Positions 4,839 to 64,000 are shown, numbered from the stretch's first letter. The stretch: 64,000 nt of DNA from an uncultured bacterium (GCA_963746775.1 CAVVCK010000001.1:339050-403049); one strand, 5' to 3'. Translations and numbers: made by a program. Notes: generated by a model not told the origin, from the letters alone.

Positions 4839-4900
4839 ATTTAAATTTAATTAACTTTTTTATATTAAATAATTACACGCGGATTTAAAATTTATATTTT

Positions 4901-4962
4901 ATACATACAGGTTTGAAACCTAAACATATTTTGTACATACAGGTTTGAAACCTGTATCTACC
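4901..4962 (-). repeat. REP-like palindromic repeat family 1, two tandem units (ACATACAGGTTTGAAACCTGTAT) fused to the stop codon of the LCP gene
   Basis: Same ~26-bp unit is seen at 14801-14880, 22568-22652, 59694-59718 and 63343-63420. The last unit ends ...CCTGTATCTACC and overlaps the TAG stop. On the minus strand each unit starts with GTAG. Confidence 0.8.
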
Positions 4963-5996
4963 TACCTCAAATACTTCTCTACCATCTTCTCCTTCCCCTC
5001 TTCATCAATCACCCAAAAATACAAATTCTTTCCAAAATTTTCTACATACAAGGTTTCCCCATGTCCCGGAACAAAATCAGTTTTTATATCGCCTAAACTT
5101 AATTTTCCAAATCTTCTCACAAAAGTTGTCGCTCCAAACATTCCTGCTCTGGCAAAATCAATATTGATTTCAGCGTTATCACTTTCTTTCAAGTAATTAT
5201 AAACTTTCTGCGCAGTATCTTTATTTTTCATTTGACTTAAAACTGCTCTAAATACTTTCCTTTGATCATCAGTTCTAGCAAAGTCCCCTCCAGCTCTATA
5301 TCGATCACGCACCTGAGCTAGCGCTTTTTCCCCATCATAATACCCGTCATCAGTCCACACTCCACCTACCATATCCACAACATCTTTAAAGCTCTCAAAA
5401 GTAAATTCTACTGTGCCATTAATTTTTATACCTAAAAAATCTTCAATAGTCTTTTGGGTTAATTTAATATTACCAATACTAGATTTATCAGTTAAATCTC
5501 CATAAATATAAGCATGGGTAATTTTATCCAAACCATGTCCTTCAATATTTACCCGGCTATCTCTTGGAATGGTAATTAGGCTGGTTGGTTTACTAGGATT
5601 CTTGGGAATAGAAAAAATCATTAAAACATCAGAACGTGCCCGCTCCTCTCCCCTTCTATCACAACCTACAATTAAAATATTATATCGATCAGGCATTAGC
5701 GCATAAACAATTCCAAATAATAAAATTGGGATAATTATAATTAGAGGTAGGATTATTTTTAGGAATATTCGTCTTTTCTTTTTTTTCCCTTTGCCCGCCG
5801 TAGCTGCCTCCTTCGCCGAAGTAGCTACGGAGGCCGAGTTGGCGGAGGAGGGTTTGTCCGCCGAAGTTTTAACGAAGGATTTACCCGCTGTAGTTTTAAC
5901 AGAAGTAGACTTGTCCGCCACAGATTTGTCAAAAATAGATTCTTTTTTATTTATATTTTCTTCACTAACTTTTCCAAGCTTTATGATTTTTGGCAT
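4962..5996 (-). CDS. LytR-CpsA-Psr (LCP) family cell-envelope phosphotransferase
   Basis: N-terminal K/S-rich region, a TM segment, then the LCP core (ILIVGCDRRGEERARSDVLMIFSI...ITIPRDSRV). Confidence 0.8.
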   Translation of the reverse strand: MPKIIKLGKVSEENINKKESIFDKSVADKSTSVKTTAGKSFVKTSADKPSSANSASVATSAKEAATAGKGKKKKRRIFLKIILPLIIIIPILLFGIVYALMPDRYNILIVGCDRRGEERARSDVLMIFSIPKNPSKPTSLITIPRDSRVNIEGHGLDKITHAYIYGDLTDKSSIGNIKLTQKTIEDFLGIKINGTVEFTFESFKDVVDMVGGVWTDDGYYDGEKALAQVRDRYRAGGDFARTDDQRKVFRAVLSQMKNKDTAQKVYNYLKESDNAEINIDFARAGMFGATTFVRRFGKLSLGDIKTDFVPGHGETLYVENFGKNLYFWVIDEEGKEKMVEKYLR

Positions 5997-9608: not shown

Positions 9609-9670
9609 ATTCGTAACATTAGTACTCATTCGTATACATCTCTCGAGTATTCTCGAAAGATTGGCATTAT
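9609..9670. promoter_or_regulatory. ATTCGTAT direct-repeat element (copy 3, diverged) with a TTGGCATTAT tail
   Basis: ATTCGTAACATTAGTACTCATTCGTATA at 9609-9636 plus TTGGCATTAT at 9661-9670. Related to the elements at 48463-48499 and 55848-55883. Confidence 0.5.
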
Positions 9671-10509
9671 TATTTTATCAAGAAAAACAAAGCTCCCAAT
9701 AAAACCAAAACAATTCCCATCCCCAGCTTCATTTCCTTCTGCCTTTTCTCTTGCCATTCTTTTAAATCTGCGATTCTTTTGCCTAAAATAATTAAAATAT
9801 AAATAATTACTAAAGGCATTACGAACAACAAGTTGTAAATAAAAAGATAAGCAATCACATGCCCTCGTCCTAAGTTTTCATATAGAAGACTAATTGACCC
9901 GACATATAAAGGAAGTGAACAAGGCAGTTCAAAAAGCGTTACTATTATTCCTAAAATTATAGTAGCCGGTACAGAAGCTTTCTGCACAAATTTAGTTAAT
10001 TTCATTCTTTGAGACTGCGGAATCTGTAAAGAGAATCCTTTGCCATACCAAAAAAAGTCTTTAATATTTATCAGTCCGGCAATGATAATTATAGTGCCTA
10101 AAATATATTCAATAATTTTCGAAACATCACGATAATAAGGCTGAGAAACTAGCACGCTAATAAATTTATAAAAAATTATGCCAATAGAAAAATAAGTCAG
10201 AAAAATAGTAATAATATAAACAGCTCCAATTTTGGGTACTTGCTCTTTTTTCTTGGCAAAAACAATCATATAACCAAGCAGCAAAATCATCATGCCAATA
10301 GCGCAGGGATTAATACCATCAATCATTCCCGCCACCACAATAACCGGCAAAGTAAAATTAGATAAAGTGGTATTAAAAATAGAGCTTCGTCCGCAATTTA
10401 TTTCTGATTGAATGCCATTAATTTGACAATTTAAATCATCTGCAAAAGCAAAATTCGTAATAGAAAATAAACAAAGAAAAATAAACAAAAATATTACAAT
10501 TCTATTCAT
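9670..10509 (-). CDS. CcdA/DsbD-family thiol-disulfide transporter membrane protein with an N-terminal Cys-containing secreted extension
   Basis: Two conserved TM cysteines (GINPCAIGMM and FELPCSLPLY) typical of the CcdA/DsbD core. The adjacent gene is thioredoxin-like. Confidence 0.6.
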   Translation of the reverse strand: MNRIVIFLFIFLCLFSITNFAFADDLNCQINGIQSEINCGRSSIFNTTLSNFTLPVIVVAGMIDGINPCAIGMMILLLGYMIVFAKKKEQVPKIGAVYIITIFLTYFSIGIIFYKFISVLVSQPYYRDVSKIIEYILGTIIIIAGLINIKDFFWYGKGFSLQIPQSQRMKLTKFVQKASVPATIILGIIVTLFELPCSLPLYVGSISLLYENLGRGHVIAYLFIYNLLFVMPLVIIYILIILGKRIADLKEWQEKRQKEMKLGMGIVLVLLGALFFLIK

Positions 10510-14755: not shown

Positions 14756-14800
14756 ATTTTATATTTATTCGCGAATTGATTTTATTTAAATTCATCTCTG

Positions 14801-14880
14801 GCACATACAGGTTTTAAACCTGCCTTGTACATACAGGTTTTAAACCTGCCTTGTACATACAGGTTTTAAACCTGTATCTA
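14801..14880 (-). repeat. REP-like family 1, three tandem units, fused to the gap stop codon
   Basis: ACATACAGGTTTTAAACCTG(CCTTGT) three times. The last unit ends CCTGTATCTAC. Confidence 0.8.
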
Positions 14881-15882
14881 CACCTTAATTCTACTCGCCT
14901 TTAATATATGCTCCAATAAAGTCCAAGAATATCCCATTTCGTTATCATACCAAGCTAAAATTTTTACCAAATCTCCATCTACAACATTGGTAAATTCACT
15001 ATCAACTATGGAAGGGCATTTATTTCCTACGATATCAGAAGAAACTAGAGGTACCCCAGATACTTTTATAATATTTTTCCATCTTGTTTCTTGTGATGCT
15101 TCTTCTAAAATTTTATTAACTTCTTCTTTGGATGTTTTCCTCTTAGCTATAAATGTAACATCAGCTATCGATCCACAAATATTAGGAACCCGAAGAGCTA
15201 GACCATCAAATAAATTTTCCAAAGATGTAACTACTTTCGTAACAGCAATAGCAGCGCCGGTTGTCGATGGAATAATATTTTCTGCTGCTGCTCTGCCACG
15301 ACGCATATCTTTTTTCTCCGAAGGACTATCAACCAAGCTTTGGGTTGCTGTATAGGCATGAACGGTATTGAGAATGGCTTTTTTTACACCTAATTTTTCC
15401 GATAAAATATCCATCACCGGTGCTACTGCATTAGTTGTACAAGAACCATTATTAGTAATTATATTGTCCTTTAATTTTTCTTCATTAATTCCTAATAGCA
15501 CTGTCTGCGCATCTTTAGAAGGAGCAGAAATAATTACTCTCTTTGCTCCTGCTCTAACATGTTTTTCCGCATCAGCTTTCTTGGTAAATACTCCTGTTGA
15601 TTCAATAACTACATCTATACCTAAATCTTTCCAAGGTAGCTTCTCCGGTTCTCTTTCTTGGCAAAATAATATTTCCTTGCCATCAACCATTAATTTGCCA
15701 TCACGGGTTTTAACATCTCCCTCATATTCCCCATAAACAGTATCGTAATCTAGAAGATAAGCTAAATTTTCTAAGTCTCCCAAATCATTTATACCAACAA
15801 TTTCTATTTCCGGATGCTGAAAAGCAAGACGAAAAAAGCCTCTTCCTATACGACCAAAGCCATTTATAGCTACTTTTATCAT
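14878..15882 (-). CDS. gap: Glyceraldehyde-3-phosphate dehydrogenase
   Basis: NAD-binding NGFGRIGR motif and the catalytic SCTTN motif. Confidence 0.9.
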   Translation of the reverse strand: MIKVAINGFGRIGRGFFRLAFQHPEIEIVGINDLGDLENLAYLLDYDTVYGEYEGDVKTRDGKLMVDGKEILFCQEREPEKLPWKDLGIDVVIESTGVFTKKADAEKHVRAGAKRVIISAPSKDAQTVLLGINEEKLKDNIITNNGSCTTNAVAPVMDILSEKLGVKKAILNTVHAYTATQSLVDSPSEKKDMRRGRAAAENIIPSTTGAAIAVTKVVTSLENLFDGLALRVPNICGSIADVTFIAKRKTSKEEVNKILEEASQETRWKNIIKVSGVPLVSSDIVGNKCPSIVDSEFTNVVDGDLVKILAWYDNEMGYSWTLLEHILKASRIKV

Positions 15883-22457: not shown

Positions 22458-22567
22458 ATTTCTTATTAGTAATTATTACTAATTAAATATTATTACTATT
22501 AATATTTTATGTCAAGAAAATTTGTGGATAACTAAAAAATGGGTTATAAACCCATCTCTACGATATC

Positions 22568-22652
22568 GTACATGCAGGTTTGAAACCTGTATTCCCAAAT
22601 ATACGGGTTTTAAACCTGTATTCCTGTACATGCAGGTTTTAAACCTGCATCT
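22568..22652 (-). repeat. REP-like family 1, three tandem units, fused to the trxB stop codon
   Basis: TACATGCAGGTTTGAAACCTGTATTCC, ATACGGGTTTTAAACCTGTATTCC and TGTACATGCAGGTTTTAAACCTGCATCTACC. Confidence 0.8.
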
Positions 22653-23565
22653 ACCTCTTTCCCGCCAAATACCGCGCCACCTTCAACAAGGCCATACACC
22701 CCTGCCCCGCTGATATTACATATTGATATTCATGGCCTGAAGCAACATCACCAGCAGCATATATGCCTGGCACATTAGTTTGCATTTGACAATCAACTTG
22801 AATATGCCCATCTTCATCTAATTCTACTATATCTTTAAAAGACTCCGTATTGGGCCTACGGCCAATTTCTATAATTACTCCTCTAACATTTATCTCTTTT
22901 ACCACTCCTTCTTGTTCAAATTTTAAACCAGATACTATTTTTTCACCTAAAATTTCTTTGGTATCAACATTATATAATATTTCCACTTTAGGATCATTAA
23001 TTGTCCGTTCCATTAAATATTCATGGCCCATTAATTTATCATCACGTACTATCAAATAAATTTTGGAAGCAATATTTTTCATAAAATCAACTGCTTCCAT
23101 AGCTGAATTACCTCCACCAATCACAGCCACCGGCATATCAGGAAATAAGGGGCCATCGCAGATAGCACAATAAGTTACCCCCCGACGAGCAAATTTATCT
23201 TCTCCTGGCACATTTAATTTACGTGATTTAGATCCAGTCGTTATAATTATTGATTTTGTTCTATATTTACTTTTATCAGTAATAACTTCAAAATCTATCC
23301 CTTCTTTTCTGACACTTTTTACATATTCACTAACAATTTCTACTTGATTAATTTCCATTTGCTTCTTCATAATAGATCTCAATTCAATACCAGTCGTCTG
23401 GATAATGCCAGGATAATTTAATATTTCTCCACTAACTAGAAATTGACCACCAAAATCTGGTGCAATGATTTTATAATTCATTCTCTTGCGAGAAGCATAA
23501 ATAGCAGCCGTTAAGCCCGACATACCAGCACCAATAATAATTGTCTCTAATTTATTTTCTTTCAT
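22651..23565 (-). CDS. trxB: Thioredoxin-disulfide reductase
   Basis: FAD motif GAGMSGLTAA, redox-active CAICDG and NADPH-binding GGGNSA. Confidence 0.9.
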   Translation of the reverse strand: MKENKLETIIIGAGMSGLTAAIYASRKRMNYKIIAPDFGGQFLVSGEILNYPGIIQTTGIELRSIMKKQMEINQVEIVSEYVKSVRKEGIDFEVITDKSKYRTKSIIITTGSKSRKLNVPGEDKFARRGVTYCAICDGPLFPDMPVAVIGGGNSAMEAVDFMKNIASKIYLIVRDDKLMGHEYLMERTINDPKVEILYNVDTKEILGEKIVSGLKFEQEGVVKEINVRGVIIEIGRRPNTESFKDIVELDEDGHIQVDCQMQTNVPGIYAAGDVASGHEYQYVISAGQGCMALLKVARYLAGKR

Positions 23566-36838: not shown

Positions 36839-37285
36839 TTATTCCCTAATCAACAGCTTCACAATATCCGCTCTACTAACAATCCCCAATAATCTACCAT
36901 CTCTAACAACCGGTACTGGATTAATATGTTCTTCTTCAATTAAAGAAGCTACATCTTCTACGGAATAATCAGGATCTACCGTTACTACCTCAGCTGTCAT
37001 CAATTCACACGCTTTGGTCGCTAATATTTTCTCTAACTCGCTTTCAACTTCAGAAGGATCCTCTAAATAAAGAAAACTATTTAAAAGTTGAATATAACTA
37101 GGCATATGCAATTTTGCTTTTTGCATAATAAGATCTGCTTCAGTAACAATTCCCACAATTTCCTTACCTTTTACTACGGGTATGCCTGTTAAATTATTTT
37201 CAATCAAAAGTTTAGCCACTTCCTTTATAGAAGTATCTTCCCTACAGGTAATAACATTTTTCCTCATTATTTCCGATATTTTCAT
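36839..37285 (-). CDS. CBS-domain pair protein
   Basis: Two CBS motifs (GIPVVKGKEIVGIVTEADL and PVPVVRDGRLLGIVSRADI). Confidence 0.8.
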   Translation of the reverse strand: MKISEIMRKNVITCREDTSIKEVAKLLIENNLTGIPVVKGKEIVGIVTEADLIMQKAKLHMPSYIQLLNSFLYLEDPSEVESELEKILATKACELMTAEVVTVDPDYSVEDVASLIEEEHINPVPVVRDGRLLGIVSRADIVKLLIRE

Positions 37286-37387
37286 ATTTTTTATATTTAT
37301 TTTAATAATCGATACTAATATACAAATTTATACTAATAAATATTCATTTGTATAATTCGTATTCATTAGTATATTTGTATCGTGTAC

Positions 37388-38668
37388 TTATTTTACCATT
37401 TTCTTCACTAAATATTCAAATACTTTTCTGTTTTGTATTAATGTTCTTATATAATCCTCATACTCTGCTGATTTAATTTGTTCTATTATTTTTTTGTCAT
37501 ACGCATACCGAGCTAAAGTTTTATTTTTTTCTTCTTCAACTTCCTTGTTATTAGCTTCAATTTTTTCAATTTTAGCTATTTCTCTTAAAATTAATCCGTA
37601 TTTTGCCCGCTTAGAAGCTTTATCTTCAAATTCTTTTTTTAATTCTTCTTCTGTTTTTTTAATACTTTCTAAATATTTTTCATATTCACCACCTGAGGCA
37701 GCTACCATGTTTTTTAATTCAGCTATCATTTTATTTATTTCACCTTGAACTAAAACCTCTGGAAGTTCTAGCTCTGTTTTTTCAGCTATTTTTTCAAGCA
37801 TTGCTTCCTCTAATCTTGATTTTTCTTTTTGTTGTTCTTCTTTCTCTAAATTTTCTTTAAGCTTTGCTTTTAAATCTTCTAAATCCTTAAATTGTCCCAA
37901 AGATTTTATAAACTCATCATTTATTTCAGGTAAATTTCTTTCACTCACTTTTTTCATTTCTACTTTAAATTCAACATCCCTGTCTGCTAAATTATTTTGG
38001 TGATATTTCTTAGGAAATCTCACACTAAATTCCTTCTTGTCTCCAACTTTCATACCAATTAGATTATCTTCAAATCCTGGTACAAATTGTCCTTCGCCAA
38101 TTATTATGGGATGATTTTTACTCTCACCCTTATCTACGGGTACTTTATTTAAATAAGTCTTAAAATCAACCTCAACAACATCTCCTGATTTTGCTTCTCT
38201 TTTTACTTCAGAATTTTTAGCTCTGCTTTTTCTTAAATTTTCAATCATCTCCTCAACTTTTTTTTCCTCAACTTTTATTTCTTTCTTTTTAACACTAATT
38301 TTATCATATTCGGGTAATTTAAATTCAGATAAATAAGAAACTGTTGCCTTAAATTCAAAAGGATTGTCTGGAACTAATTTTTCCATCTTTATTTCTGGTT
38401 GAGCAATTGCTTCTATTTTATTCTCGGTTATCGCCTGAACATAAAATTTAACAATTGCCTTTCTGGAAGCTTGTTCCCAGAGACCAAAAGTTCCTACTTC
38501 TTTTTCCACAATATTACGTGGTACATGACCCTTTCTAAAGCCAGGAATACTTAAAGTATTAGAAATTTCTTTAGCCGCTTGTTCTAAAAAAGGTTCCATT
38601 TCTGAAACTTCTGCGGAAATATTTAATTCTACCTTACATTTAGGTAATTTTTTAACTTCTACTTGCAT
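37388..38668 (-). CDS. tig: Trigger factor
   Basis: Trigger-factor N-terminus, central FKBP-type PPIase, C-terminal domain, ~430 aa. Confidence 0.85.
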   Translation of the reverse strand: MQVEVKKLPKCKVELNISAEVSEMEPFLEQAAKEISNTLSIPGFRKGHVPRNIVEKEVGTFGLWEQASRKAIVKFYVQAITENKIEAIAQPEIKMEKLVPDNPFEFKATVSYLSEFKLPEYDKISVKKKEIKVEEKKVEEMIENLRKSRAKNSEVKREAKSGDVVEVDFKTYLNKVPVDKGESKNHPIIIGEGQFVPGFEDNLIGMKVGDKKEFSVRFPKKYHQNNLADRDVEFKVEMKKVSERNLPEINDEFIKSLGQFKDLEDLKAKLKENLEKEEQQKEKSRLEEAMLEKIAEKTELELPEVLVQGEINKMIAELKNMVAASGGEYEKYLESIKKTEEELKKEFEDKASKRAKYGLILREIAKIEKIEANNKEVEEEKNKTLARYAYDKKIIEQIKSAEYEDYIRTLIQNRKVFEYLVKKMVK

Positions 38669-38877: not shown

Positions 38878-39453
38878 ATGGATTTAATACCCACTGTAAT
38901 AGAAAAATCAACTTATAGCGAACGTGCCTATGATATTTATTCCCGCCTTTTGAAAGAAAGGATTATTTTTTTAGGCGGTCCCATAGACGATAACGTTGCC
39001 AATACCATTATCGCCCAACTTCTTTTCTTGGAAAGTGAAGATAAACACAAAGACATTAAATTATATATTAATTCCCCTGGTGGATCAGTTACGGCTGGGT
39101 TAGCTATCTATGATACTATGCAATATGTTAAATCAAACGTCTCAACTATTTGTGTAGGTTTAGCTGCTTCTATGAGTGCAACTCTATTGGCCGCAGGAAC
39201 AAATGGTATGAGATATGCCCTGCCAAATTCGGAAATTATGATTCATCAGGTCATGGGTGGAGCCCAGGGACAAGCTACTGATGTAGCCATATCAGCCAGA
39301 CATATTATTAAAGTAAAAGAAAATTTAAACAAAATATTATCTAAGCATACCGGACAGAATATAGCCCGCGTAGAGAAGGATACTGACCGAGACAATTATA
39401 TGAATCCGCAAGATGCCAAAAAATATGGTATAATAGATCAAATTATTAAATAA
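38878..39453 (+). CDS. clpP: ATP-dependent Clp protease proteolytic subunit
   Basis: Catalytic Ser context [14 protein letters not shown] plus His and Asp motifs. Confidence 0.9.
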
Positions 39454-39538
39454 ATTATGCTTACTAATATACGAATTATAATTATATTAGTAATATTATT
39501 AGTATAATTCATACGTATTAGTATTGATATATTCACAT

Positions 39539-43245: not shown

Positions 43246-43477
43246 GATATATAGAAAATATAGGTCATAATTAATTCTCTGTCAATTAAACAAACATATT
43301 ACTAAAATTAAATGACTGCCTGACCTATTCACTATAATAATTCATCTAAGGTCTAATTCACCTAATAAAATAATCAAATCTTAAATTAATAATTAAAAAA
43401 ATATTTATTAATTTTGATATTTTATTATTTAACCTTTTATTAGGTGAATTAGATAAATTGTAATTTAGGTGAATTCA

Positions 43478-48310: not shown

Positions 48311-48392
48311 TGCCCAGGGTGGGACTCGAACCCACAAGAGTTGCCTCACTAGCTCCTAAGGCTAGCGTGTTTGCCAATTTCACCACCTGGGC
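48311..48392 (-). tRNA. tRNA-Leu (anticodon UAG), long variable arm, no encoded CCA
   Basis: Acceptor GCCCAGG/CCTGGGC, anticodon stem CTAGC/GCTAG with loop CTTAGGA, T-arm GTGGG-TTCGAGT-CCCAC. Confidence 0.85.
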
Positions 48393-48430
48393 TCAATATA
48401 ATACTAATCTGCCTCTAACGTCAGACATGT

Positions 48431-48499
48431 ATACGAATTATACCAATTATACTAATTATCTATTCGTATCATTAGTACCCATTCGTATATTGGCATTAT
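48431..48499 (-). promoter_or_regulatory. Conserved ~70-bp ATTCGTAT direct-repeat element upstream of tRNA-Leu (copy 1)
   Basis: ATTCGTATCATTAGTACCCATTCGTATATTGGCATTAT is preceded by TATACCAATTATACTAATT. Almost identical to 55811-55883. Confidence 0.6.
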
Positions 48500-48531: not shown

Positions 48532-49302
48532 TTACTTTTTATCTTTTTTCTTTCTATTTAAAGGACTTCTAAATAAATTTAAAATCAATAAAACAATACT
48601 TCCAATAAAAAAATATTTAGTATACTTATAAATCTCTCTATAAATATCTTCTTTCTTTTTAATTATTTCAAAATCAGTCAAATATACCACTTCGCAGGCA
48701 TTATTACCTGTATCTAACCTAGTAGTGCTTGTACTGCGCTTAAATTGTCCGTCATTAGCAGAATATTCCACTAAATATCCTTTGAAATGAATTTGATCCC
48801 CTATCTCTACCGACATAATTTTTTTAGCAATTTCTTCATTATCAGCTAGCAAATGATTATTAGACAAATGACTAAAAGAAAATTTAGATTGTACTTCCTG
48901 TCCTGCTCCATTTTTACTTTCCATATAGCAAGTCCAGCTACCGCTTTTAAATTTCATTTGCTTATAAACTTCTGTATCAATATTACTCCCCCAAATAACA
49001 CAAACATCTTTCAAATTAATAAAATCATTCCATGCTTTATGATAATAGTCCCACCATTTATTGGCATTATGATAAGTTACCACTAAGCCATAAAGCTCAT
49101 AACTAGTTATTGGTTTTATATTATAAGTAACATCGCCTACCCTTTTTTCAAAAGACTCTTTGTCAGTATGCTCTTGTATCGGCTCCTGGAATAGCCTCTC
49201 ATCAATTTCTCCTTTCTCTGGTAATTGATCTTTTAGAAAATATGAAGTAATTAAAATAATAATGCTGAGCAGTAGAATAATTTGTAATATTCTTTTAAAC
49301 AT
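48532..49302 (-). CDS. Hypothetical membrane-anchored/secreted protein
   Basis: ORF with an N-terminal TM and a C-terminal TM plus basic tail. Confidence 0.5.
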   Translation of the reverse strand: MFKRILQIILLLSIIILITSYFLKDQLPEKGEIDERLFQEPIQEHTDKESFEKRVGDVTYNIKPITSYELYGLVVTYHNANKWWDYYHKAWNDFINLKDVCVIWGSNIDTEVYKQMKFKSGSWTCYMESKNGAGQEVQSKFSFSHLSNNHLLADNEEIAKKIMSVEIGDQIHFKGYLVEYSANDGQFKRSTSTTRLDTGNNACEVVYLTDFEIIKKKEDIYREIYKYTKYFFIGSIVLLILNLFRSPLNRKKKDKK

Positions 49303-49357
49303 GGTTTTATGGTAGGATTATAACATAAATTTTATAATTTTATTGATATTTTATATG

Positions 49358-49387
49358 TAGGTTGGGTTGAGTACTCGAAACCCAACA
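49358..49387. repeat. REP-like palindrome family 2 (GTAGGTTGGGTTGAGTACTCGAAACCCAAC)
   Basis: 8-bp stem GTTGGGTT/AACCCAAC. Copies are at 51890 and 59626. Confidence 0.75.
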
Positions 49388-51846: not shown

Positions 51847-51889
51847 TATGCATAGTTTAATTTTAATATTTGTTGGTGAAGTAAATAAA

Positions 51890-51919
51890 GTAGGTTGGGT
51901 TGAGTATTCGAAACCCAAC
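51890..51919. repeat. REP-like palindrome family 2 copy
   Basis: GTAGGTTGGGTTGAGTATTCGAAACCCAAC. Confidence 0.75.
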
Positions 51920-54693: not shown

Positions 54694-55764
54694 TCAATAA
54701 TTCGGCGCCTTCTCTACCCTCCCTAAATCATGCGGATGACTCTCTTTCAATCCCGCATTAGTAATTTTTACAAACACCGCTTTCCTCCATAAATCTTTAA
54801 TATCTCTAGCCCCACAATAACCTAAGCCCTGTTTTAATCCACCTACTAATTGTTTTATAATTTCTATTACACTGCCTTTATATTCATTATAGCCTACTAC
54901 CCCTTCAGCAGTCATATCTCTTTTATTCTTCTTATCACTTTGCATGTATCTATCACTGGACCCTTTTTGCATAGCCTCTATTGATCCCATACCTCTATAT
55001 ATTTTATATTTTTTTCCTTTGTAAAGTAAAATTTTACCTGGTGCCTCATCTGTTCCAGATAAAAGTCCACCAAGCATTACGCAACTTGCCCCAGCCGCCA
55101 AAGCTTTTACTATATCACCAGAATATTTAATCCCTCCATCAGCAATGATAGGAGTTTTTGTTTTTTGGGCTACTTTAACTGCTTCCATGACTGCAGTTAA
55201 TTGAGGTACGCCAATACCAGCAATAATTCTGGTCGTACAAATGGAGCCAGGCCCTACTCCTACTTTAACAATGTCTGCGCCAGCTTTAACTAAATCATTA
55301 GTTGCCTTGCCTGTAGCTACATTTCCTCCAACTATTAAGACTTTTGATCCATATTTTTTCTTCAGTTTTTTTATAATTTCCTGTACTTTATAATAATGGC
55401 CATGAGCTACGTCTATAATTAATAAATCCACACCTGCCTCAACTAATAAATCTGCTCTCTCTAATGAATCTTTGCCTACCGATATAGCTGCTCCACATTT
55501 TAAATTTTCTGATTTTACTTTTTTTACTTCTTCCGCTTGCTTTTCCGGTGGTAAATTTTTATGTATTACGCCTAGTGCTCCCATTTTTCCCAATTCGATG
55601 GCCATTTTACTTTCAGTTACAGTGTCCATAGCAGCTGACAAGATTGGCACTTCTAATTCTAAATTTTTACCTAATCTTGTTTTTGTACTTACCTTGCTGG
55701 GTGAATATTTTGATGCTTGAGGTACTAATAATACATCGTCGAAGGTTAGAGCTTCTTTTATCAT
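54694..55764 (-). CDS. guaB: IMP dehydrogenase (CBS-less short form) / GMP-reductase-like
   Basis: IMPDH catalytic loop [11 protein letters not shown], phosphate-binding [17 protein letters not shown], adjacent to guaA. Confidence 0.8.
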
Positions 55765-55810
55765 ATTGTTTTATTTAAATATTTTTACTGTTTGTATAAT
55801 GCTAATATAC

Positions 55811-55883
55811 TAATCTATACCAATAATACTAATTGACAGTAGGACAATTCGTATCATTGTAAACATTCGTATATTGGCATTAT
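55811..55883 (-). promoter_or_regulatory. Conserved ~70-bp ATTCGTAT direct-repeat element upstream of guaB (copy 2)
   Basis: ATTCGTATCATTGTAAACATTCGTATATTGGCATTAT plus CTATACCAATAATACTAATT. Confidence 0.6.
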
Positions 55884-59579: not shown

Positions 59580-59625
59580 ATGGTTAAAAATTATTTATTT
59601 ATATTTTTATTATAGCATAATTCAA

Positions 59626-59718
59626 GTAGGTTGGGTTGAGTACTCGAAACCCAACAAAAAAGGCAGGATACGATCCTGCCCTACAATATTGTTGTACATA
59701 CAGGTTTCAAACCTGTAT
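59626..59718 (-). repeat. Cluster of three different REP-like palindromes between the RND gene and msrB: family 2 (59626-59655), family 3 (59662-59684) and family 1 (59694-59718)
   Basis: GTAGGTTGGGTTGAGTACTCGAAACCCAAC, GGCAGGATACGATCCTGCCCTAC and GTACATACAGGTTTCAAACCTGTAT lie consecutively, 6 bp after the RND stop. Confidence 0.8.
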
Positions 59719-59724
59719 TTCTAA

Positions 59725-62700
59725 TTAGCCAACAACCTTCCTCCCAAACCTCCCCCTAAACCACCCAAATATTCTCTCCACCATATTAATTACAATCGGC
59801 AAAACTATCAAATTACCAATAGTGGCAAAAGTTAAACCGAAAATTACAGTTGTCCCCAATCCTCTCCAGAAAGGATCTTGAATTGTTAGGGGTACAATGG
59901 CGGCAATAGTAGTAATAGAAGTAGAAAAAATAGGTTTAAATCTCATCTTGCCAGTCTCAACTAGCGCTTCAGATAATTTTTGATTTTTATCTCTCTTTCT
60001 TAATCTATTGAAATAATCAATAAAGACAATGGCATCATTAACCACAATACCTACTAGAGTTATTACACCTAAACCGGAGATCATATCCAGTGAACTTCCT
60101 ACCGCATAAAGTGCTGGAAAAACACCAATCAAAGCCACTGGTACTGCCAACATAATCATTAAAGGCTGTAAGTAAGAATTAAATTGATAAGCTAAGATCA
60201 AAAAAACAGCTATAATAGCAATAATAAAGGTAACTAAAAGCTTGTTAAAGTCAGTAGCAATATCAGAAGCAAAGCCGCCGTAAGCAATACTATCTTCATC
60301 TAGACCAAAATCATTCAGTCTGTCTTTATTTAGATAATCTTGGATATCTTTTTGTACTTTAGTAATTTCAGCTGCCTTATCCTCATCAGCTACATCTAAA
60401 TATATTTGGTAAGAAACCGACCTTGCCCCATCAATAAAGTTAATCGATTGAGCCTTGTCCTCCGACTTTACTTCCGCTATATCAGACAATTTAATAGGCT
60501 TTATACCTTGCACTCCTACAATTAAATTTTTTATATCATCGATAGATTTTTTAGAATTTTCATTGAATAATAATTTTACTCCATCTTGCCTACCGCCTTC
60601 TCCAATAGTTACTTTGCCTAAATCAGATTCAGAAAAGACGCTATTTACAATCATAGAAGTAGTCAGCGGTGCAATACCATATTCTTCTATTTTATTTTTA
60701 TCAAAATTAATCTCTATAGAAGGAACTAAATTATCTTTTAGCTCATTGCTAATCTTATTAATTTTAAAATCTCCATTATCTTCTTTTCCTACAACAAAAC
60801 TGTCTAACCCCTCTATAGTTTTTTTAATAGCTTCTCCATCGGTATTTTTTACTTCTACAATAACATCATAAGAGGAAGAGGTTGGGCCATAGCCTTGAGC
60901 ACCAACACTAATAGTAGTATCTTGAGGTGCCCTATCTCTAATATAATTAATTTTTTCGTTCAAATTATCTACAATAGTATAGACTGTAGTATCTTTATCA
61001 TTTCTTCTTTTTGATGGATCAGTTATTAAAATAAATAGCTGCCCTTGCATCATAAATGAACCTTCGAAATACGGTACTTTTATGGCTTCTTTCATTAAAT
61101 CAGAAGTTATTTCTTTCTTTACTTCATTGCTTGTCCCTACTGGAAAATCCATGCTTATACTAAATTGCTGGGTATCAGTCATAGGAAATTGAGAAGATTT
61201 CACCTTGCCTGTTCCTACTAAAGACATACTATAAATAAATCCAGCCAATAGAATCAAAACTATAGCTAATTTATAAGTCCATTTTCTATAAACCCTAGAC
61301 ATAAATCGGCCATAAACTTCCACTAGTTTATCAATCATTTTCTGGCCATAAAAAACTATAGCTGGCAAAACTAAATATTTTTGTGATTTGGTTAATCTTC
61401 TTTCTTTTCTTTCTTCTTCTGTCTCTTTCTTTAAAATCCATTTACCTAGAAGTGGAGTAATACTAATGGCTAAAAAATAAGATACCACTAACATAATAAT
61501 CATAGTATAGGGAATATATTTCATAAATTCCCCTATAATTCCACCCATTCTGGCAGCCGGAATGAAAACTACCACTGTTGTCGCTGTAGCTGAAGTTACC
61601 GCCGGACCTAAATCGCGAATAGTACTCAGTGCTGCTTTTAATTTGCTGTCTCCGTACTTACTCATGCGATGCTGCATACCTTCAGCAATAACAATAGCAT
61701 TATCAACTATAATACCTAGGGTCAAAATCATAGCAAAGGTTGTCAGAATATTAATAGTAAAGCCCAGCTCGTAGAGAATAAATAAAGTTATTAAGAAAGA
61801 AAAAGGGACAATCAGTGATACTACTAAGCCTGCCCTAATATCAATAAAAAACATAAAGACAACCAATATAATAATTAAACCAAAAATCCCATTGCGAAGC
61901 AGCGTTGATATTTGAGTCTCTACATAGGTTGAAGAATCATAAGTTAAATCGATATTAATATTTTCATCTAGAATATTTTTATCATAAATTTTATCTATGG
62001 CCGCCGTAATATCTTTTTTCATCTTAATAACATCTCCCTTGTCTTGTTTAATCAACATTAGATATACTGCCTGATCACTATATTGAGGCTGCCCATCTCT
62101 TAAAAATCCAGCTGCCAATTGAGTATCACCTGACTTCGCTTCTTCCGTTATCTCGGCTATTTCCGATAATTTAGAACCATCAGCCAAAGTTATATTTTTA
62201 ATATCGTCTATTTGGCTTACAGGATTATTAATAGTAATTTGCTTAGAAATATTAGTCTCCTCATCTGTAATGCTTCCTCCAGGCAAGACCTGTAAATTAG
62301 CTTGGATAATTTGCTTTACAGTATTTACATCCAATCTTTTCTCCTGAAGCGCTTTGGCATCAAGCTTGATTTTTACATCAAAATCAGTTTCTGGCATTAC
62401 CTGCACTTCTTTGATTTCTTTACTTTCTTTTTCTAAATATTCTTTTACCTTGGGTGCTTTTTTAATTATTTCATTGTAGGAAATTTTATCACTAGATAAA
62501 ACGTAAACCAAAGAAGGACCAGCTGCATCCTCTGTACCCACATTAATATCCACACCATCCGGCAAGCTAGCTTTATTAGCTAGCTCATTAAATTCAGTAA
62601 TAGTTTTATTAATAGTTTCTTTATCAAAACTCTTAGTCTCGATTACTACGCTTCCATAATTAGCATAAGCTGATGATCTCATCTTTGCTACTTCCTTATG

Positions 62701-63342: not shown

Positions 63343-63420
63343 ATACATGCAGGTTTTAAATCTGTATTCCAATATATAACCTATATTCCAATATATACAG
63401 GTTTCAAACCTGTATCTACC
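63343..63420 (-). repeat. REP-like family 1, two units with a degenerate middle unit, fused to the rlmN stop codon
   Basis: ATACATGCAGGTTTTAAATCTGTATTCC ... ATATACAGGTTTCAAACCTGTATCTACC. The overlapping ORF 63289-63498 is rejected. Confidence 0.75.
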
Positions 63421-64000
63421 GTTCTCCTGCCAATTGCCCGCAAGCTCCTTTAATATTTTGCCCAAATTTATATCTCTCCACAACTGTAATATTTTCATTT
63501 TCTAATATTCTTTTAAATTTTCCTATCTGATCAGGATAAGATGATTTGAATTTACCAGTTTCATTATAATTAATTAAATTTACAAAAAATAAATGTTTTA
63601 AATTATCTTTCAAAAGATTAGCTAGCTCCCTGGCCATATCTTGCGAATCATTTATATCCCGAAGCATTACATATTCTATCATTACTTTTCTATTGGTTTC
63701 TTTTATATATTCTTTGACCGCCTTTAATACTTTTTCTATAGGATAATTGGTATTAACAGGCATTAATTGGCTGCGTAATCTACCATTTGGTGCATGCAAT
63801 GATAGAGCTAAATTAATCTGCTTGCCCTCGCTAATCAATCTCCTAATCCCCTCAGGAATACCACAAGTAGAAATAGATATTCTACGTGACCCTATATTAA
63901 ACTTTTCTTTATCATTTAAAATATGAATAGCTTTTATTACTTCTTCATAATTAAGTAATGGCTCACCCATTCCCATAAAGACAACGTTATCTATTTTCTC
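63416..64000 (-). CDS. rlmN: Radical-SAM 23S rRNA/tRNA methyltransferase RlmN/Cfr family, C-terminal part (N-terminus beyond window end)
   Basis: GMGEPLLN motif, and the ORF runs off the window. Confidence 0.75.
   Translation of the reverse strand, partial: EKIDNVVFMGMGEPLLNYEEVIKAIHILNDKEKFNIGSRRISISTCGIPEGIRRLISEGKQINLALSLHAPNGRLRSQLMPVNTNYPIEKVLKAVKEYIKETNRKVMIEYVMLRDINDSQDMARELANLLKDNLKHLFFVNLINYNETGKFKSSYPDQIGKFKRILENENITVVERYKFGQNIKGACGQLAGER

Follow-up and report, generated by a model that had tools for sequence, protein, structure and literature searches.

The Correia elements of Neisseria belong to one genus, are copied as whole units, duplicate a TA target and carry an IHF site. 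They are ~100-150 bp long, have inverted ends, lie between genes at gene borders and present outward promoter hexamers; they may be co-transcribed and processed, and their presence varies between close relatives. Here we describe a repeat, module M, that resembles them in these latter traits. A sequence-only reading had pointed to two nearly identical segments, 48431-48499 and 55811-55883, upstream of tRNA-Leu and guaB in a stretch of 64,000 nucleotides from an uncultured bacterium (GCA_963746775.1 CAVVCK010000001.1:339050-403049; the whole stretch is referred to as the window), and both segments are copies of M. The Correia element may be the closest functional analogue of M, which nevertheless lacks what defines it: M has no target duplication, has an interior that need not be shared between copies, occurs also as single or tandem arms, and has a core that is present in at least 81 species-level assemblies.

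In architecture, the closest analogues seem to be activator boxes that replace a -35 hexamer and the tandem operators of ribbon-helix-helix proteins, and M again departs from the defining features of each. The Pho boxes of PhoB/PhoP and the 0A boxes of Spo0A are, like M, several direct repeats upstream of or overlapping a good -10 hexamer with a poor -35 (TTCGTA in M). Pho boxes, however, repeat every 11 bp and serve one regulon, whereas the boxes of M recur every 8-10 bp; unlike Pho and 0A boxes, they run through the -10 and the discriminator, face stop codons as often as start codons and define no functional regulon. The met-boxes of MetJ and the heptads of the omega repressor share with M units of 7-9 bp in 2-10 copies, direct and inverted, with a fixed frame and variable free positions, but these arrays serve few promoters per replicon, whereas M supplies about one site per 10 kb and lies also at gene 3' ends. 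Repetitive extragenic palindromes (REP) and their composites, the bacterial interspersed mosaic elements (BIME) and REPINs, are likewise dispersed intergenic repeats of alternating orientation that form genome-specific families and have been proposed to bind host factors. REPs are GC-rich hairpins tagged GTAG or CGTC (PMC3733652). The arms of M are not hairpins, and paired arms avoid complementarity. Intervening sequences of 23S rRNA genes (helix 25/45 type) come close at one of the loci described below (L067), where a pair of arms with GC-rich flanks replaces hairpin tips, but most copies of M are unrelated to rRNA. Compared by eye, DnaA boxes, the sites of Fur, LexA, PurR (PurBox), CtsR, CIRCE and NrdR, and the promoters of sigma-54, sigma-28, sigma-H and extracytoplasmic function (ECF; CGTATA) sigma factors do not fit all boxes. 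Tandem interspersed guide RNA (TIGR) arrays were rejected, since the free positions of M are one base each and spacers are absent. A literature search on the octamers and on promoter, motif, leaderless, MITE (miniature inverted-repeat transposable element) or palindromic elements of the candidate phyla radiation (CPR) and Parcubacteria found no description of M.

The repeat at guaB and tRNA-Leu belongs to a dispersed family of polar arrays that are built of ATTnGTAT boxes and lie at gene borders. Each arm holds three to five tandem boxes, usually four or five, with the consensus [ATTnGTATy] ATTCGTATC ATTnGyAy(n) ATTCGTATA TTnGYATC, whose last four boxes are U2 to U5. The spacing of the boxes is 9, 9-11 and 8 nt, and the unit measures 36-45 bp. 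Arms mostly form back-to-back pairs with U5 outward, and otherwise stand alone or follow one another in tandem. Only the U4/U5 junction is compressed to 8 bp, which makes an essentially invariant TATATT. The sequence-only reading had described a simple pair of octamers 21 bp, or exactly two helical turns, apart. Starts of ATTCGTAT lie instead 19 nt apart in element A of the window (48462 to 48481) and 18 in element B (55847 to 55865), and the corresponding starts in element C are 19 nt apart (9609 to 9628), with a third box between the two octamers and a fourth after them, and the suggested pattern with an N13 gap matches neither A nor B. The tail that had been called conserved, TTGGCATTAT, is box five as the dialect of this genome has it. 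The window contains five elements, at 9.6 (C), 37.3 (D), 39.5 (E), 48.4 (A) and 55.8 kb (B):

48430-48456, minus strand: element A, left arm; three tandem 9-nt boxes, in plus-strand letters TATACGAAT TATACCAAT TATACTAAT, read on the minus strand as ATTAGTATA ATTGGTATA ATTCGTATA and directed toward tRNA-Leu (48311-48392, minus strand)
48457-48461: element A, inter-arm spacer; 5 nt, TATCT
48462-48499, plus strand: element A, right arm; U2 ATTCGTATC, U3 ATTAGTACCC, U4 ATTCGTATA, U5 TTGGCATT (boxes, 48462-48497), then AT
48395-48424, minus strand: sigma-70-like promoter CTGACG-18-TATATT; directly 5' of tRNA-Leu, between the tRNA and element A
55797-55833, minus strand: element B, left arm; U2 ATTAGTATT, U3 ATTGGTATAG, U4 ATTAGTATA, U5 TTAGCATTA; directed at guaB
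55834-55846: element B, inter-arm spacer; TGACAGTAGGACA, with no relation to the spacer of element A
55847-55883, plus strand: element B, right arm; U2 ATTCGTATC, U3 ATTGTAAAC, U4 ATTCGTATA, U5 TTGGCATT, then AT; directed at guaA
9609-9669, plus strand: element C, single arm; U2 ATTCGTAAC, U3 ATTAGTACTC, U4 ATTCGTATA (9609-9636) and U5 TTGGCATT (9661-9668)
37310-37337, minus strand: element D, left arm; ATTAGTATAA, ATTTGTATA, TTAGTATCG; directed at the gene of a CBS-pair protein, whose ATG (37285) follows U4 by 33 nt
37346-37382, plus strand: element D, right arm; ATTTGTATA, ATTCGTATTC, ATTAGTATA, TTTGTATCG
39460-39476, minus strand: element E, degenerate left arm; U4 ATTCGTATA, U5 TTAGTAAG; 6 nt after the clpP stop codon (39451-39453)
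39486-39525, plus strand: element E, degenerate right arm; ATTAGTAAT .. ATTAGTATA .. ATTAGTATT; ahead of a small membrane open reading frame (ORF; 39524/39540) and RNase Y

In all window elements minus-strand boxes lie on the left and plus-strand boxes on the right, so that arms stand back-to-back with the last box outward. The near-identity of A and B is borne out by their right arms (ATTCGTATCATTAGTACCCATTCGTATATTGGCATTAT and ATTCGTATCATT-GTAAACATTCGTATATTGGCATTAT), which match at 35 of 38 positions with one indel, and by their similar left arms. Nor is the repeat random AT-rich sequence, as had rightly been argued: ATTNGTAT occurs 39 times in the window against 20.0 +/- 4.2 in shuffles, of which none in 100 reaches 39. 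Chains of three or more boxes at 8-11 nt spacing number six in the window and none in 200 Markov simulations, and chains of two or more number eight against a simulated mean of 0.38.

The genes around these elements were identified by Pfam assignments, ORF calls and tRNA calls. Element A lies between tRNA-Leu and the stop codon of a minus-strand ORF (48532-49302) that has no Pfam match, and its right arm is directed into the 3' end of this ORF, 34 nt from the stop codon. Element B separates the divergent guaB and guaA; the guaB ATG (55764) comes 41 nt after U4 of the left arm, and the guaA ATG (55942, plus strand) 68 nt after U4 of the right arm. A position upstream of minus-strand units, as the sequence-only reading had it, thus holds for one arm, whereas the other faces guaA or the 3' end of a convergent gene. 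The diverged third copy that it had noted is element C, in which a 24-nt insert (9637-9660, CATCTCTCGAGTATTCTCGAAAGA, with an internal TCTCGA repeat) falls exactly between boxes 4 and 5. This element lies between two convergent genes, downstream of an rluB-like gene and its hairpin, and its U5 touches the stop codon (9670-9672) of the right-hand one of the two, an SfLAP/DsbD-like gene. A supposed half-site at 37355-37376 proved to be the full two-armed element D, the last box of whose right arm is 6 nt from the stop codon of trigger factor (37388-38668, minus strand). The degenerate element E (39460-39525) had gone unmentioned. As a side observation, the IMP dehydrogenase encoded by guaB (54694-55764) has 356 aa and lacks the usual CBS pair, and the separate 148-aa CBS-pair protein next to element D (36839-37285) is encoded 18 kb from guaB.

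We scanned one genome per species (185,579 species) with the pattern ATTCGTAWCATT-N6-8-ATTCGTATA and obtained at least 118 loci (numbered with the prefix L) from at least 81 assemblies. Among the matches listed, nearly all are labelled as Parcubacteria group, Paceibacterota, Patescibacteria or named candidate phyla (Taylor-, Jorgensen-, Harrison-, Zambryski-, Azam-, Wolfe-, Nomura-, Yanofsky-, Sung-, Lipton-, Kuenen-, Doudna- and Staskawicz-bacteria), and a few carry other database labels, given here as found: 'Saccharibacteria' (automated TPA, or third-party annotation, bins), three 'Gammaproteobacteria' and one 'Bacteroidetes'. Across the listed loci GC content spans 32-56%, and a weaker box precedes the search pattern. 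The eight bases after the pattern, for which we had not searched, read T (99%), T (98%), n, G (98%), Y, A (95%), T (97%) and C (69%). A further 114 arms, found only via the U4/U5 anchor, keep the same periodic ATT..G.A. frame. The spacers between U2 and U4 measure 17, 16 and 18 bp in 72, 46 and 9 cases, the only values that the search admitted. Each genome has a dialect common to all its copies, with TTGGCATTAT in the window and ATCGATACT, ATCATGT or TATATTTATTT elsewhere. Scanning a viral collection gave one match (L139, 9473-9499), on the contig of a giant-virus metagenome-assembled genome (MAG) that is maybe mis-binned Parcubacteria, and thus no evidence of phage use.

Placement was analyzed in the 118 listed loci (8 kb each) and the window with our own ORF calls. 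Outside called ORFs lie 219 of 238 cores (~92%), although ORFs cover 81.5% of the sequence. Neighbouring cores are back-to-back in 74 cases, tandem in 18 and face-to-face in none; before cysS in L082, four arms stand in tandem. In 49 arms a co-oriented start codon follows U4 by 12-25 nt, with a mode of 16, and in 60 arms the stop codon of a convergent gene follows U4 by ~11 nt. The start distance of 12-25 nt is seen at tuf, fusA, recA, groEL, dnaJ, ssb, rplF, rpsD, rpoA, nusA, gyrA and others, and genes with textbook N-termini support the start calls (EF-Tu, EF-G, RecA, GroEL, DnaJ, SSB, L6, S4, S7, S11, RpoA, NusA and GyrA). Single genes bracketed by an arm at both ends are not enriched (Fisher p = 0.39), a comparison limited by the 8-kb length of the loci.

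Two side observations concern the start codons near M. To the left of single arms in L016, L017, L018 and L039, ORFs run into the reverse complement of M and acquire the false N-termini MNTNDTN or MHANDTN, and automated annotations of M-bearing MAGs may carry the same false extensions. In L002, L032, L035, L052, L087, L102 and L104, a recurrent leader of 23-25 nt between M and the ATG ends in TAAGCGAAGCGT-ATG and contains the mini-hairpin motif GCGAAGC; in different genomes it stands before rplF, recR, tuf, a HIT-family gene, pilC, dnaJ and clpP.

Is M read as RNA or as duplex DNA? The pair of element A folds at -29.3 kcal/mol, a stability that 7 of 200 shuffles equal or exceed (z-score only -1.9). 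At their free positions paired arms are anti-correlated: their identity is 0.12 and 0.10, against 0.36 and 0.34 for shuffled partners, and U3 has the same length in 42% of arm pairs. Anti-correlated arms and unequal third boxes imply that pairing is avoided rather than selected, and covariation between arms was rejected as evidence for an RNA hairpin because the result had the opposite direction. Since arms keep the dialect of their genome while the spacer between them may be unrelated, each arm appears to be recognized as duplex DNA by a protein whose preference drifts between lineages. We consider it very probable that M is bound by a protein. To this extent the earlier suggestion of protein-bound direct repeats holds; its response-regulator geometry does not, as there are four to five boxes at 8-10 bp spacing.

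Several features suggest that an arm could also serve as a promoter. By reading of the consensus, the forward strand offers the TANNNT hexamers TATCAT, TAGTAT and TATATT and the reverse complement none; TATATT at the U4/U5 junction is close to TATAAT, and a box (TTCGTA) is located 16-18 bp upstream of it, the only range that the search admitted. U5 reads TTAG, which creates TAGYAT, more often near starts, with A in 54% of start-adjacent and 26% of stop-adjacent arms (chi-square computed by hand, p about 0.01). Where the ATG follows U4 by 12-18 nt, a second promoter would not fit, and the alternative would be co-transcription with the gene upstream. Shine-Dalgarno motifs are rare in these genomes, at 6-8% of genes; their use is 3-8% in all gene classes, with or without M, so that this contrast is uninformative. 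Among 510 genes without M (L001-L118 and the window), 10.8% have a TANNNT hexamer that ends at -7 from the ATG, against ~3% elsewhere; as far as sequence can tell, this is a signature of leaderless transcription. With little Shine-Dalgarno use and such a signature, a compact promoter just before the ATG would be the expected design. In L019, the 5' half of a 23S processing stem and then a 5S-containing unit each begin a few nucleotides after an outward U5, and the 3' half of the processing stem ends a few nucleotides before the next pair of M arms.

Based on these findings, we tentatively favour the explanation that M is a fast-turnover polar binding array for a conserved factor with an outward -10-like TATATT, that is, a portable promoter or unit-boundary cassette; we put this no higher than a leading candidate that falls somewhat short of even odds. 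What the sequences show is the anatomy and polarity of M, its intergenic placement and distances to gene borders, its phylogenetic breadth and its turnover; its binding by a protein, its promoter activity and any terminating or insulating role are what we infer. M would be bound as double-stranded DNA by a factor conserved across Parcubacteria-type Patescibacteria, for which the candidates are RNA polymerase equipped with an accessory or alternative specificity subunit and a small protein of cooperative binding. Placed 12-25 nt ahead of a start codon, an arm would be a compact promoter whose transcripts have a very short leader or none, and its partner, with U5 against the stop codon of the preceding gene, would mark and perhaps block the end of the upstream unit. 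Genomes quickly gain, lose and homogenise copies, so that M behaves like a portable cassette and not like the fixed operator of particular genes. We regard as unlikely the bolder version in which an undescribed superphylum-wide factor uses M to punctuate chromosomes, with an outward start at one face and a stop or insulation at the other. If this were true, the punctuation would split operons conserved elsewhere (gatC-gatA, rpsG-fusA and rpsH-rplF), and even 23S rRNA genes would be partitioned into pieces that are transcribed on their own and joined by intervening-sequence stems.

Several observations weigh against a portable promoter. The hexamer 16-18 bp upstream of TATATT is TTCGTA, which agrees with the -35 sequence TTGACA at 3 of 6 positions. 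A stop codon of a convergent gene lies on the U5 side about as often as a start codon (60 and 49 arms), so that half of all arms are directed into gene 3' ends, which would not be expected of a simple promoter; of the earlier idea of a shared promoter module, what stands is a shared, non-random direct-repeat module with a -10-like TATATT. M is similarly frequent in convergent (11/101), divergent (9/96) and co-directional (91/635) spacers, and by inspection true single arms are no more commonly in sense orientation than antisense to both neighbours, an antisense example being the one between rplF and rplR in L060. Canonical promoters exist beside M: TTGACA-17-TATATT lies 11 nt before tRNA-Pro (window 43257-43285, minus strand), TTGACA-17-TAATAT occurs at ~22.5 kb in the window, TTGACA-16-TACAAT precedes the 16S gene in L049, whose genome also has M, and tRNA-Leu has the CTGACG-18-TATATT listed above. 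Such textbook sigma-70 promoters in M-bearing genomes make the primary sigma factor seem conventional. Sense cores are absent from the 200 nt upstream of all 40 tRNAs in 139 loci.

Copies of M also turn over fast at given genes. In relatives with 62-85% identical GuaB, M is absent upstream of guaB. In L046, M stands 17 nt before recA; eight relatives with 88-95% identical RecA, an unbiased set of recA loci, keep the ftsK / small gene / recA synteny and have no canonical and two degenerate copies of M. In the loci selected for M, recA (3/5) and gatA (3/4) looked enriched, which we attribute largely to ascertainment and turnover because the unbiased recA sample has no canonical copy. These findings count against the favoured reading as well. 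A regulon of guaB and tRNA-Leu, the genes from which the sequence-only reading started, is not supported: the module adjoins unrelated genes in at least 81 assemblies (among them recA, fusA, tuf, groEL and genes of ribosomal proteins), relatives lack it ahead of guaB, and tRNA-Leu has its own sigma-70-like promoter between the element and the tRNA gene. As an observation apart, some guaB relatives carry other tandem-unit inverted repeats right before the ATG, with an architecture like that of M and a different unit sequence. L119 and L121 have CTTATCTCG four times at ~2260-2500, with copies of GCAAGATAAG ~120 nt upstream, and L133 has TTCTTAAT four times at ~2380-2500, with inverted copies upstream.

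Turnover of this kind resembles the habits of a proliferating repeat, but single or tandem arms and interiors that are unrelated between copies in some genomes misfit whole-unit copying. M could be a selfish non-autonomous mobile repeat of the MITE, REPIN or Correia type, ~90-110 bp long, whose boxes are transposase or recombinase sites at both ends, and which spreads to any tolerated intergenic site with incidental promoter-like effects; we consider this unlikely, at roughly one chance in five. The 74 back-to-back arm pairs provide the terminal inverted repeats that a mobile repeat should have. Five elements in 64 kb, at least six contigs of one assembly among the matches listed, dialects common to all copies of a genome, a similar frequency in every spacer type, presence or absence that varies between close relatives, and apparently decayed copies would all follow. 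So would two identical 160-bp copies, each a pair with GC-rich flanks, that replace the helix 45- and helix 63-region hairpin tips of one 23S gene in L067. However, in 86 pairs symmetric direct repeats, expected of a target-site duplication, equal those of a shuffled-partner control, and no transposase gene was seen beside the copies in the 8-kb loci, where no systematic survey was made. The inter-arm spacer is common to copies in H43-bin053_1 but unrelated between conserved arms in SRP178908_co1_167 and in the window, unlike the result of whole-unit copying, and single and tandem arms are well conserved. Known MITE and REP families are species- or genus-specific, whereas the near-invariant core of M is found in at least 81 species-level assemblies with 32-56% GC. 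Sharply constrained start-codon distances also speak against free spread.

Alternatively, and with about the same low probability, M could be an operator or nucleoid-protein array without a promoter of its own, at which a cooperative global repressor or architectural protein occludes or insulates promoters and unit ends. All five boxes are one 8-mer, including U3, which would lie in the promoter spacer, and U5, in the discriminator, so that a sigma factor alone would not suffice; they occur in direct and inverted arrangement, and arms are equally conserved beside stop codons, where no promoter is needed. The separate canonical promoters fit such an array too, as do tRNA-Leu and guaA, where the array lies upstream of a separate -10-like hexamer. 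It accounts less well for the start codons 12-18 nt after U4, which leave no space for a second promoter short of co-transcription, and for the invariant compression to TATATT with the TTAG bias of start-proximal arms, both of which point to a -10 function. Nor does a candidate autoregulated DNA-binding gene recur beside M among the loci examined.

An RNA-level element, in which the transcribed pair is a long hairpin for termination, stabilisation or RNase III cutting, is much less probable than either of these. Beyond the fold of element A, it can draw on pairs at the stem tips of 23S intervening sequences and between rRNA processing stems. It is opposed by the modest z-score, by anti-correlated arms with often unequal U3 length, by single arms that have no self-complementarity, and by the lack of a U-tract after the hairpin; a terminator scan found no intrinsic terminator at the elements, whose AT-rich arms are not followed by a T-run. 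Rfam searches with the whole window (gathering score) and with the element (E <= 5) matched only tRNAs and gave no family for M. Some M pairs lie inside intervening-sequence-like 23S insertions or between rRNA processing stems (L067, 4860-4990 and 5530-5660; L019, 60-150 and 5950-6090), and in L043, L053 and L069 several copies, together with group I introns, cluster at 23S model position ~2044.

The original proposal, a two-site direct repeat at which a response-regulator-type protein co-regulates guaB, tRNA-Leu and the CBS gene, is largely refuted and now carries very little weight. Direct repeats are present, and three of five window copies adjoin guaB/guaA, the CBS-pair gene or a tRNA, but the octamers start 18-19 bp apart and enclose a further box, and the two (or 2n) direct repeats at 10-11 bp centre-to-centre that characterize OmpR/PhoB-type sites are replaced by four to five boxes at 9, 9-11 and 8 bp. 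The neighbouring genes are functionally unrelated, guaB lacks M in relatives, and two window copies abut gene 3' ends only. A DNA uptake signal for the competence machinery, enriched by uptake bias as are the Neisseria DUS and Haemophilus USS, is just as hard to credit: M does occur in either orientation, often as inverted pairs at gene ends, and in genome dialects, but known uptake sequences are short, about ten times denser (about 1 per kb) and common inside genes, whereas M has a density of only ~1 per 10 kb, is intergenic (92% of cores outside ORFs) and polar, and keeps constrained distances to start codons.

To our knowledge, nothing is known experimentally about where transcription starts and ends in Parcubacteria. 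M is a near-unchanged word of 36-45 bp in at least 81 species of differing base composition, with a fixed polarity at gene borders. It thus offers a handle for fishing out the binding protein and for annotating transcription units in MAGs, could be tried out as a portable promoter in the genetic engineering of Parcubacteria, and lets one ask whether split rRNA genes and broken-up operons yield separate transcripts. Were M a selfish repeat after all, it would have to be unusually old or to have been transferred unusually widely.

The window contains two further repeats. One, GTAG-ATACAGGTTTnAAACCTGTAT, is found at 4889-4968, 14789-14888, 22556-22661, 59682-59729 and 63344-63426 as one to three hairpins in tandem, and every run begins right at a minus-strand gene's stop codon. 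This repeat, which occupies the spacers without M, resembles a GTAG-tagged REP family or a family of 3'-end hairpins. At 59655-59742 on the minus strand, ARAGORN calls a tRNA-Ser that Rfam does not; the call overlaps a terminator hairpin (GGGCAGGATCGTATCCTGCC) and a REP-like palindrome and is probably a false positive. The other repeat, GTAG-GTTGGGTT-GAGTAYTCGA-AACCCAAC, is a GTAG-tagged REP-like hairpin at 49349-49386, 51882-51919 and 59618-59655, and its copy at 59.6 kb lies just upstream of an extended -10-like TGCTATAAT.

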